64,000 nt of DNA from Candidatus Nomurabacteria bacterium (lineage in GTDB: Bacteria; Patescibacteriota; Minisyncoccia; Phycocordibacterales; SBAW01), in contig CALREW010000001.1 in assembly GCA_943356415.1 (NCBI GenBank), positions 223,900-287,899 on the forward strand. Direction: 5' to 3'. The notes beneath the pieces were generated by a model that saw only the letters and a list, made by a program, of their open reading frames with translations, had not been told where the DNA came from and made no database searches. The position numbers and the translations under genes are program-made. Numbering within the stretch: the first letter of the stretch is position 1; each line of letters opens with the position of its first letter. Of the stretch, positions 43,751 through 50,605 are shown piece after piece.

Positions 43751-46700
43751 TTATGCCCCTTCTTCAGTCGTCGCTGGTGCCGGCTTTTCGCTGTAGGCGG
43801 AAGTCTCTTTCGGCTGGATGTCCGCAATCATCTGGTGCTTGCGGCTGCCAGGGAAACCAGTACCTGCCGGAATAAGACGACCGATGATGACGTTCTCTTT
43901 GAGACCCTCGAGCATATCGCGGCTTCCATACACCGCTGCCTTGATGAGCATGCGGGTCGTGTTCTGGAAGGATGCGGCTGAGAGGAACGACGCGCGCGAG
44001 AGTGAGACATCGAGGATACCCATAACGAGCGGCTCACCAACAGCTACTTCACCACCTCCATCTTTCGTATCGGAGTTAAGTGCAACGAGGTCAGTCTCGC
44101 CCATGATGTCGCCGATCGAGAGTTCGGTTGAACCCGAGTTCCTAATCTTCACGCGTGAGAACATCTGCTTCACAATAACTTCAATGTGTTTGATGGACAC
44201 CGCTGCACCCTGGAGCTCGTAAATCTTTACGACTTCAGAGACGATGTATTCCTGCGTGCGTTCAACGCCAGCAAACTTGAAGAGCTCTTCAATGTCCGCC
44301 GAACCGTCAGTGAGGAGTTGTCCCTTCTCTACCTTATCGCCCGCCTTCACAAACGGCGTGCGGCGGAAGTGTACCGGGTACTCAATCGAACCTTTCTTTT
44401 TGTCTTCGATGTCCGGGAGAATGATGATGGTGCGTTCGCGACCCTCTTCTTTTATCTCAGAGACCATACCCGAGACATGCGAGATGACGGCTGGGTTCTT
44501 CGGTGCGCGGCGTTCGAAGATTTCTTCAACGCGTGGGAGACCAGTCGTGATGTCGCCACCAACTGAGGCAGTTCCACCTGCGTGGAAGGTACGCATCGTG
44601 AGCTGGGTGCCCGGTTCGCCGATAGCCTGTGCAGCCACCGTTCCGATTGCTTCACCGAGGTCAACGGGCTTGTTGGTTCCTAGGTCAGCGCCGTAGCAGC
44701 GGATACAGAGACCTTTGCGTGCGATGCATCCTATCGGTGAGCGCACGAATACGAGATCGGTGCCTCCATCTTCTACAACCTTCGCATCTGCACGGGTGAG
44801 GAAGTGACCTTTCTTGAAGAGTACTTCTCCTTTCGTGTCGGTTGCGTCTGAAGCAAGGTAGCGGCCTTCGATGTTTGCTGCGAGGAAGGTGCCGATACCT
44901 GAAGCGGATTCACGCTTGATAGCAAGTCCTACCTTAGTGTTGCAGTCCTCAATCGAGATAACTACGTCCTGCGCAACGTCAAAGAGACGGCGTGTGAGGT
45001 ATCCGGCTTTTGCCGTGTTAAGTGCAGTGTCGGAGAGACCCTTACGAGAACCGTGCGTTGTGATGAAGTACTCAATCGGTGAGAGGCCTTCCTTCATGGA
45101 CGTCGTGATTGGGAATTCGATGGTCTCTCCAGAAGTTGAAGCGATAAGACCCTTCATGCCGGCCATCTGGGTTACCTGACCAAGCGAACCGCGGGCGCCT
45201 GAACTGATCATGTCAGATACAGGACCACCGACAGGAAGCGAGAGCGGAATAAGCTTTTCGACATCGGCTTTAGCTGCGTGCCAAACTTCGATGTTCATGC
45301 GGTAGCGTTCTTCTTCAGAGAGAAGTCCCTGCTCCCAGTGACTGACCACTCCTTCAGATTTCTTCTGCGCTGCAGCAATGATGGCGTATTTCTCCTGCGG
45401 AATCGGGATATCGTCGATAGACCAGGTAATGCCTGACTTCGTAACGTAACGGAAGCCGAATGCTTTGATGCGGTCGAGTATCTGCGGAATGCGATCAAGG
45501 CCGTAGCGGGAGATGAGGTCATCAACCATGCGTGCGAGCACTTTCTTATCGATCGGCTGGTTGATGAACGCGTAGTCGTCAGGAAGGACCGAGTTGAAGA
45601 GCAAGCGACCCACTGTTGTTTCGAAGAGTGCACCTTCAAACTGCGCGTACTTCGCCTTTTCAGACGGCAACACTTTGATTTTTGCTTGGAAGCCAACTTC
45701 ACCGAAGTCATATGCGGTGATAGCAGCATTCGGGCTCGGGAAGGCTTTGCCTTCACCCTTTGCGCCCGTCACATTCTTCGTCATCCAGTAGCATCCGAGG
45801 AGAATATCGAGGAGTTTTGATGCAACAACCGGCTCACTGTTACCTGGCTTCAAGATGTTCTTGTGAGCAGCCATGAACTGGGACGCCTCAAGTTGTGCTT
45901 CAGGTGAGAGCGGTACGTGAACAGCCATTTGGTCGCCGTCGAAGTCTGCGTTGAATGCCGGGCAGACGAGTGGGTGTACTTGGATAGCGTTACCTTCAAC
46001 GAGTATCGGCTGGAAGGCCTGAATACCGAGACGGTGAAGCGTTGGTGCGCGGTTGAGGAGCACGTACTTGTCTTTGATGACGTCTTCAAGGATCGCCCAT
46101 ACTTCCGGTACGCCTTCGTCGATAAGACGCGACGCGCCACGGATGTTGTACGCGAGTTCCTTTTCAAGAAGTTGCGCGATAACAAACGGACGGAAGAGCT
46201 CAAGTGCCATGCGCTTTGGAAGACCGCACTGGTTGAGTTTGAGGTCTGGACCAATGACGATAACCGAGCGGGCCGAGTAGTCGACGCGCTTACCGAGAAG
46301 GTTCTGACGGAAAAGACCATGCTTACCTTTGAGGTTGTCGGAGAGTGACTTCAGCGGACGGCGCTGTGCCTGGGTTTGTGCCGAGTATGCAGCACCACCG
46401 TGACGAATCGAGTTGTCGATGAGTGCATCAACAGCCTCCTGCAAGATGCGCTTTTCGTTGCGCAAAATGACATCCGGCGCCTTGATGGCGAGAAGCTTAG
46501 CGAGACGGTTGTTGCGGTTGATGACGCGGCGGTAGAGGTCGTTTACGTCGGAAGTCGCATGACGGCCACCTTCAAGTGCAACCATCGGACGAAGTCCTGG
46601 CGGGATAACCGGAATGCGCGTGAGGAACATCCATTCTGGGCGAACACCTGAGCGGATCATGCCGCGAATAAGCGAGAGGCGCTTGTGGAACTTCTCGCGG

Positions 46701-49700: not shown

Positions 49701-50605
49701 TCAATGACTTTAAGAAGCGTCGTTACAACGTCGTCGAGGCTAAGCGTCTTGCGAAGGAGTTCTTTCTCATCAAGCGACTTATTGAAGCGCTCGTTGAAAC
49801 GGTAGCGACCAACGCGAGAGAGGTCGTAGCGTTCTGGGCTAAATATCGAGTTGATATAGTCGCGAGCGTTGTCTGGGGTTGCCAAATCGCCGTCGCGAAG
49901 CTTTTTGTGTATTTCGACGTAGGCATCGGACACCGTCTTTGCCGTGTCGCTTTCAAGGGCGGTTTCAATCCACTTCTTTGCGTGCTCGTTCTTGCTGAAG
50001 AGCGACTTCATGTCGGAATCAAACGCTGCACCAAGAACACGGAGCAGGGTCGTTGCCGCAAACTTGCGCTTGCGGTCGATGCGCACCGATATTTCACCGT
50101 CAGCAGAACCTTCAATCTCAATCCATGCACCACGTGCTGGGATTATCTTTGCACCGAAGTAACGCTTGCCCTTGATTTCATCCGCTGTAAAGAAAATACC
50201 GTAGCTTCGTGCAAGCTGCGGGACAATAACACGCTCAACACCGTTGATGATGAACGTACCGTGGTCGGTCATCACCGGAAGGTCGGCAAGGAAAATCTCC
50301 TGCTCCTTCTCCGTACCCATCGCCTTGTTGATGAGTTTAACGGTGGCGCGCAAAGGCACCTCAAGCGAGAGCTTCTGCGCTTTCGCGTAGTGCTCGTCGT
50401 ACTTGATTTCTCCCATTTCGATCTTTACAAATTCAAGATCGAACTTCTTGCTCGAGTAGTCACGAATAGGCGTGAACTCCTTGAAGGTTTCCTTCAATCC
50501 GTGGTTGAGGAACCACTGGAAGGAATCGCTCTGTGCAGCGACGAGATTTGGGGTCTCAACGCGCGGGGCACGGAAACGGGAGAACGTTTTTTGCGTACGC
50601 ATCAA
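43751..50605 (-). CDS. rpoBC: DNA-directed RNA polymerase beta/beta' fusion (single 2284-aa ORF)
   Basis: The N-terminal two-thirds is RpoB. It continues in frame, with no stop, into RpoC ([23 protein letters not shown]...NADFDGD). Confidence 0.85.

Follow-up and report, generated by a model that had tools for sequence, protein, structure and literature searches.

A natural fusion of the RNA polymerase genes rpoB and rpoC in a Parcubacteria lineage near Candidatus Adlerbacteria

The fused rpoBC locus

A stretch of 64,000 nucleotides (nt) of contig CALREW010000001.1, assigned to a Candidatus Nomurabacteria bacterium and referred to below as the window, carries rpoB and rpoC, the genes for the β and β′ subunits of RNA polymerase, as one gene, rpoBC. 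In the list of open reading frames (ORFs) of the window, a single minus-strand ORF runs from 43751 to 50605 and has 2,284 codons when counted from a TTG, and the probability that a frame of this length stays open by chance is about 2.5e-48. The TTG at 50605 is codon 1 of this mechanically called ORF, and codon 2 is an ATG at 50602. Because the rpoBC start called in a relative with 85% identity (L081) is an ATG aligning with 50602, and four more loci of the same fused clade (class A, defined below) begin likewise, making five class A orthologues in total, the ATG is taken to be the true start and the protein to have 2,283 amino acids (aa); the stop codon lies at 43751-43753. A preliminary description of this DNA had reported rpoB and rpoC in one ORF of 2284 aa. 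The shared ORF is borne out, with all Rpb2 domains followed by all Rpb1 domains in a single frame, and the peptide quoted there is present in the translation, while the length holds for the ORF read from TTG and becomes 2,283 aa from the ATG. No strand was given at that time; rpoBC lies on the minus strand.

Both moieties are complete by the criteria of domain and family models. The Pfam domains Rpb2_1, 2, 3, 45, 6 and 7 occupy aa 20-1047, all above gathering scores, and Rpb1 domains 1-5 follow in the same frame at aa 1065-2160; the lowest E-values reach 1e-125. The protein passes the separate curated equivalog cut-offs for rpoB and for rpoC, scoring 1450.8 against 896 with NF001616 (aa 4-1046, profile positions 3-1095 of 1096), 1423.3 against 801.15 with TIGR02013, and 1478.6 against 963.5 with TIGR02386 (aa 1068-2252, profile positions 2-1144 of 1147). 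Pattern searches located the GEMEVWAL motif in the β moiety and, in the β′ moiety, zinc-binding Cys clusters at aa 1118-1136 and 1887-1969, the bridge helix at aa 1867-1873 and the trigger loop at aa 1995-2007. The C-terminal 79 residues of the β moiety align end to end with solved β chains, and the columns of the catalytic NADFDGD motif are at least 90% conserved across 48 aligned fused homologues. From these features, both halves look functional. They had also been described as compact, which is true of β, whose ~1,045 aa fall below every solved bacterial β chain matched (1,100-1,383 aa), but not of β′, whose ~1,219 aa are near the minimal bacterial size and unremarkable beside several solved chains of 1,161-1,207 aa.

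Table 1. Features of the window; positions are counted from its first nucleotide.
Feature	Coordinates	Strand	Description and basis
Fused rpoBC gene	43751..50602	minus	2,283 codons plus stop, ATG at 50602; ORF list, translation, Pfam
β (RpoB) moiety	47468..50602	minus	~1,045 aa, end '...LALDVDL'; Pfam, NCBIfam, PDB alignment
Linker between β and β′	47411..47467	minus	19 residues; boundaries from PDB alignments, DNA read directly
β′ (RpoC) moiety	43754..47410	minus	~1,219 aa; Pfam Rpb1_1-5, TIGR02386
N-terminal zinc-binding motif of β′	47195..47251	minus	~50 residues past the linker; regular expression, alignment to solved β′ chains
Catalytic NADFDGD motif of β′	45932..45952	minus	aa 1551-1557 from the ATG; regular expression on the translation
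Sigma-70-type promoter-like site TTGACA-16-TACAAT	50806..50833	minus	11/12 matches; promoter scan
Putative 5′ leader	50603..50805	minus	~200 nt; holds the terminator-like hairpin
Terminator-like hairpin with U-tract	50672..50693	minus	terminator scan
dnaG (primase)	41977..43680	minus	directly downstream of rpoBC; TIGR01391, 399 bits against a cut-off of 283.6
rpoD-like primary sigma factor	40585..41907	minus	downstream of dnaG; NCBIfam RpoD models, E = 1e-129
NADAR / riboflavin-intermediate N-glycosidase domain protein	52507..53214	minus	235 aa; TIGR02464, 71.9 against a cut-off of 73.7
S16, mechanical ORF	53721..54233	minus	170 aa; S16 match begins at residue 35
SMC-like protein	57429..59681	minus	750 aa; counterpart in L081 at 1716..3989, 757 aa
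Ribonucleotide reductase large subunit	27963..30989	plus	1,008 aa; ATP-cone matches in two N-terminal stretches
purD	10128..11438		in a higher-GC stretch
MFS transporter	17843..19060		in a higher-GC stretch
Adenylosuccinate lyase	20273..21691		in a higher-GC stretch

The junction and its linker

Homology to β stops at '...LALDVDL', equivalent to residue 1339 of the 1342 residues of E. coli β in the alignment to the solved chain, and homology to β′ begins at 'FDAV' (residue 6 of B. subtilis β′, residues 12-17 of E. coli β′), with alignments to solved β′ chains starting at their residues 5-23. Separate alignment to RpoB and RpoC, which the preliminary description had proposed, thereby defines a linker of 19 residues (Table 1), about 130 nt away from the position near 47300 at which the junction had been expected. 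The continuous reading of β into β′ reported there agrees with the junction DNA of the contig, which has no stop; its longest homopolymer is GGGGG.

Across 88 class A sequences the linker follows the consensus L-M-R-G-G-x-P-V-x-x-x-R-K-T-P-G-A-E-x-S-D, with ~17-20 residues, conserved ends, and a core of ~8 residues that is variable and prone to insertion and deletion; V or L can replace M at the second position. Conserved ends around a variable core are probably the behaviour of a flexible tether. The linker of the window agrees with this type in its length and in its G-A-E-x-x-D-F-D end and has R-R-A-L where the consensus has R-K-T-P; judged by its linker sequence, the window protein is a divergent class A member. 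The linker codons also contain a Shine-Dalgarno (SD)-like stretch, GAAGGGGGAG, for which a fossil ribosome-binding site of rpoC is a plausible candidate identity. The linker holds no in-frame start codon, and since no in-frame ATG, GTG or TTG follows GAAGGGGGAG within it, no separate initiation site for β′ is visible. When aa 700-1500, a fragment spanning the junction, were modelled with AlphaFold2 and 48 fused homologues, the mean predicted local distance difference test score (pLDDT) was 52 and the predicted template modelling score (pTM) 0.36. The top PDB matches include no fused β-β′ chain.

Recurrence in independent assemblies

The full-length protein was searched against a collection of 5.8 billion proteins, and the best 120 matches were examined. 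All 120 are fused, with 1,823-2,307 aa and 53-86% identity, and they come from JGI, NCBI, ENA and Logan assemblies; where names are given, these are Candidatus Paceibacterota, Patescibacteria or Liptonbacteria. The linker type of the window is found in 87 of them. The four closest species-representative loci (L001-L004), labelled Candidatus Adlerbacteria or Parcubacteria, are fused as well, with 76-81% identity at the junction and, as in the window, 57 nt between the conserved blocks on its two sides.

Distribution among the Parcubacteria

Species genomes were represented by the 80 best-matching Parcubacteria loci of more than 583 matched. Determination of the fused or split state by tblastn resolved 80 of 80, while an earlier classification by regular expression had left 22 of the 80 unresolved. 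In 75 of these genomes rpoB and rpoC are split by a stop codon and a short spacer, and rpoC has a start of its own, of the 'MKTIDTTDFD...' type; the labels of the split genomes include Nomurabacteria, Campbellbacteria, Taylorbacteria and Doudnabacteria. The rpoBC fusion is not a general trait of the candidate phyla radiation (CPR), to which these bacteria belong; it is restricted to certain clades.

The fused lineages were placed by a neighbour-joining tree of 94 taxa, computed from 974 columns (β aa 560-1048 plus β′ aa 1067-1560) with 100 bootstraps and Doudnabacteria as the outgroup. Class A, which includes the window, is monophyletic with 100% bootstrap and fused in 17 of 17 members; its closest named relatives are Candidatus Adlerbacteria, and within it the window groups with P0001, P0003 and P0006. 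A second clade, class B (P0090-P0120 and L042; one member labelled Candidatus Liptonbacteria), is fused in 12 of 12 members, also with 100% bootstrap. Class B resembles the window in belonging to the same radiation, in its compact proteins of ~2,250 aa and in being fused throughout. However, its identity to the window protein is ~54%, many split lineages lie between the two classes, and a clade with 100% support unites class A with 55 split lineages and leaves class B outside. The class B linker, '...PLYESETDRKDxF...', is unrelated and shorter: the conserved blocks are 42 nt apart in class B and 57 nt apart in class A. The class B gene order YceG-rpoBC-S6-SSB-L11 contrasts with TrmD ... rpoBC-dnaG-rpoD in class A (window and L081).

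Two further fused proteins stand apart from both clades. P0088, a cluster of 20 sequences, lies outside them, adjoins split relatives and keeps the β′ Met in its linker; P0089, of 2,307 aa and from a single metagenome-assembled genome (MAG), has a 40-residue linker and sits among 13 split genomes in a clade with 100% support. P0088 is possibly an additional recent fusion, and P0089 another or possibly a sequencing error. Because classes A and B differ in clade, linker and neighbourhood, these comparisons indicate that the fusion originated independently at least twice, and possibly three or four times, within this radiation. The fusion had been put forward as a useful taxonomic marker. Its presence in 17 of 17 class A members supports such a use, but since it is homoplastic, with at least two origins, it marks only the Adlerbacteria-like sub-clade.

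Comparison with other fused RpoBC proteins

That fused rpoBC is known from lineages such as Helicobacter and Wolbachia and is unusual elsewhere, as stated in the preliminary description, holds: the fusions in those lineages are natural, and 75 of the 80 Parcubacteria are split. In Helicobacter and Wolinella, a single rpoBC polypeptide of ~2,900 aa is present, and the fusion has served as a rare-genomic-change marker of their clade (PMC1557499). Wolbachia likewise has a single rpoBC gene (10.1101/2021.01.29.428792). In addition, a synthetic rpoB-rpoC fusion of E. coli (Severinov et al. 1997) is reported to be functional, as cited in a later preprint (10.1101/2021.11.05.467461).

The Helicobacter/Wolinella protein (~2,890-2,900 aa) is like that of the window in being one ORF with β before β′ and a tether from C-terminus to N-terminus, but it belongs to another phylum and is of independent origin. 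The window protein is ~600 aa shorter than this type because both of its moieties are without lineage-specific insertions. The Wolbachia/Rickettsiales protein (2,839-2,842 aa) is also a natural single-gene β-β′ fusion, in a small-genome, host-associated bacterium, and is recorded as 'subunit beta/beta′'; in a Rickettsiales/Wolbachia representative (P0137), the junction sequence is unrelated to that of the window. The engineered E. coli β::β′ has the same C-to-N tether, which is reported to be compatible with a functional enzyme, but it is artificial. The literature searched yielded no paper on an rpoBC fusion in CPR, Parcubacteria or Patescibacteria, a negative that extends to that literature only.

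NCBI curates two families named 'subunit beta/beta′', NF007172 (2,890 positions) and NF011417 (2,839 positions). We take the former, which corresponds to PRK09603, to be the Helicobacter-type model from its profile length, and the latter, PRK14844, to be the Wolbachia-type model. The window protein reaches 2102.9 bits in five stretches with NF007172 and 1983.4 bits in six stretches with NF011417, below the cut-offs of 5,372 and 4,632, respectively, and because it falls below both, it is regarded as unrelated to the curated fused families. It is a member of neither, although it would work as their members do. Fused proteins of Paceibacterota are annotated in public records as just 'subunit beta′', and the missed model cut-offs may explain this naming.

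In a census of 1.84 billion cluster representatives for proteins that span the junction, ~20 additional fused clusters were full-length (2,031-2,836 aa), and their linkers are unrelated to that of the window. Named examples are Wolbachia/Rickettsiales, Mycoplasma wenyonii (P0150; 2,648 aa, annotated as 'multifunctional fusion protein', on a 650-kb contig), an Anaerolineaceae MAG (P0273; 2,744 aa) and a Deltaproteobacteria MAG (P0294; 2,846 aa). These sporadic clusters share the order β then β′ with the window but differ in linker and size. As most of them are known from one or a few sequences, some could be errors. The Mycoplasma wenyonii, Anaerolineaceae and Deltaproteobacteria lineages were absent from the examples in the preliminary description. 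The census also returned many short junction-spanning proteins in the range P0122-P0270, with Arg/Ser/Gly-rich, low-complexity junk linkers (e.g. P0126, P0142 and P0143). They resemble genes called on fragments, either out of frame or by read-through, and apparent fusions from one short contig are therefore not to be trusted. Given the differences in sequence, the CPR fusion is a new case of a known oddity, one that arose separately from the Helicobacter and Wolbachia fusions.

Weighing of alternative explanations

We hold with high confidence that the gene is a genuine, vertically inherited rpoB-rpoC translational fusion in a Parcubacteria lineage near Candidatus Adlerbacteria, given its fused architecture, conservation of that architecture throughout the clade, intact catalytic motifs and independence from the other fused lineages. 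Some circumstances could nevertheless produce the appearance of a fusion from two separate genes. In relatives, rpoB and rpoC are separated by a short spacer that often keeps the frame, and a single base error that erased a stop or merged two frames in the contig could therefore mimic a fusion; the junction includes the GGGGG run, artefact-like 'fused' fragments with junk linkers do occur in public databases, and the full-length P0089 is known from a single MAG and has split relatives all around it in the tree. An assembly or sequencing artefact is hardly credible even so. Four data sources contribute 87 independent clusters (at 90% identity) that have the fused architecture and the linker type in common, all sampled members of the window's clade are fused, and the protein sequence is conserved at the linker ends, a pattern that no error would yield. 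With independent assemblies fused too, an artefact confined to the window contig is very unlikely. There is only a slight chance that the ORF is fused while two subunits exist in the cell, through proteolysis in the linker or internal initiation of β′. The conserved basic and Pro-Gly signature R-K-T-P-G-A-E and the SD-like stretch within the linker codons are what such processing might use, but no in-frame start lies past the SD-like stretch, the next in-frame TTG would remove the conserved FDAV start of β′, and the core, with its variability and indels, has the appearance of a passive tether. Moreover, Helicobacter produces its fused protein as a single polypeptide (PMC1557499).

The number of origins is a separate matter. 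That the genes fused only once, in an early ancestor shared by these Parcubacteria, and later split again in many lineages is unlikely, since the 100%-bootstrap clade of class A and 55 split lineages, without class B, would then require many fissions. To separate fused genes, a stop, a ribosome-binding site and a start must all be gained, whereas fusing takes stop loss only. The linkers of the two classes, of 57 and 42 nt, have no sequence in common, and their gene neighbourhoods differ. What such an ancestor would account for is the position of both fused clades in one radiation and the likeness of the P0088 linker (…KNPGAETDQFE) to the class A motif despite its placement outside class A, and some deep nodes of the tree are weak (39-50%). 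The β-β′ tether may also have been repeatedly selected in ultra-small CPR cells rather than being neutral, with at least two and possibly four origins, each fixed clade-wide, and the R-K-T-P-G-A-E end may have gained a function of its own; this we consider doubtful. If it were true, the linker end might, for example, contact the zinc-binding domain or the RNA-exit region, or could instead compensate for a missing assembly factor such as omega, and the fused clades would amount to a natural experiment on what constrains RNA polymerase assembly.

Several points weigh against the interpretation as a genuine, inherited fusion that yields a single working chain. The case against a junction error in this particular contig is a comparative one. 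The AlphaFold junction model is too poor, with its pLDDT of 52, to show that a 19-residue tether spans the gap. The tree is a neighbour-joining tree on 974 columns, and some intermediate nodes are weak (39-67%). The polypeptide could be cleaved in the linker, whose conserved R-K-T-P-G-A-E signature has no assigned role, and a selective advantage of the fusion is a conjecture.

Proposed origin and function

In split relatives, the distance from the end of β to the start of β′, measured between conserved blocks, has a median of 96 nt and a minimum of 28, compared with the 57 nt of class A. Exactly one in-frame stop separates the genes in 22 of the 75 split loci. Same-frame loci outnumber the others by 49 to 26, an excess that is given no interpretation because the tblastn ranking, which supplied the 80 top loci out of more than 583, favours same-frame loci. 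P0089 has a long linker that looks as though the spacer of its split sister lineages had been read through. Loss of the rpoB stop codon is the most likely origin that we infer for the fusion: a single substitution in the stop would allow the short in-frame spacer to be read through, leaving a linker composed of the β tail, the spacer and the β′ head. Such a route would be easy and might for this reason have been taken repeatedly.

The product would be one polypeptide of ~250 kDa, presumably uncleaved, in which a short tether runs from the β C-terminus to the β′ N-terminus. In length, this tether roughly equals the natural tails of both subunits and the short spacer of unfused relatives taken together, and the polypeptide is expected to fold as the catalytic core usually does, into a crab claw. 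Assembly would end with an intramolecular step, the joining of α2β and β′, and the stoichiometry of β to β′ would be fixed at 1:1; both might be of benefit to the cell. The Helicobacter fused protein was reportedly shown to be produced as a single polypeptide by Zakharova et al. in 1999.

Upstream region and gene neighbourhood

A promoter-like site lies ~200 nt upstream of the rpoBC ATG, and both of its hexamers are conserved at the same place in L081, so that it probably functions as a promoter. Six class A leaders (window, L081 and L001-L004) were compared, and the terminator-like hairpin is their only consensus structure, with 6 pairs, 3 of them showing compensatory changes. The window and L081 also have in common a conserved 'GGGTAAACCTACAGGG' box in the leader. 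The fold of the whole leader RNA is not significant (z = -1.6), and no Rfam family reaches its gathering threshold anywhere in the 64-kb window, including the rpoBC leader. The hairpin may be an attenuator.

Downstream, the order rpoBC-dnaG-rpoD (40585..50602 in the window) recurs in L081 at 10001..19902. The matches of the rpoD-like gene to NCBIfam RpoD models are below the equivalog cut-offs. As annotated from these matches, RNA polymerase core, primase and sigma factor are in one cluster. The genes rplKAJL do not lie upstream of rpoBC; S16, a KH protein, TrmD and small unknown ORFs are found there instead. The S16 gene of L081 encodes 132 aa, and the TTG start of the mechanical S16 ORF in the window is probably too far upstream. 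A gene for a NADAR-domain protein, with a weak match to the anti-phage NADAR model, stands between the KH-protein gene and an HD-like gene.

Other features of the window

The SMC-like protein matches TIGR02168, a profile of ~1,180 positions, in two stretches with 537.7 against a cut-off of 567.35, which suggests a much shortened coiled coil. The G+C content is 0.55-0.59 at 8001..12000 and 16001..26000, against ~0.48-0.53 elsewhere, and the purine-synthesis genes in these higher-GC blocks could have been acquired horizontally. No tRNA genes were found in the 64-kb window.

Significance

The general understanding of RNA polymerase is unchanged by the CPR fusion. For annotation and marker-gene pipelines, these proteins are a caution, as they are named 'subunit beta′' and missed by the curated fused-protein models. 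At the level of the Adlerbacteria-like clade, and at that level only, the fusion is valid as a rare-genomic-change marker. A single-chain catalytic core of ~2,283 aa could also suit recombinant work on CPR transcription. With this finding, a major radiation of uncultivated bacteria gains a well-supported natural β-β′ fusion that evolved independently. The finding also shows that fusions of this kind recur, their recurrence within one radiation being the most interesting aspect.

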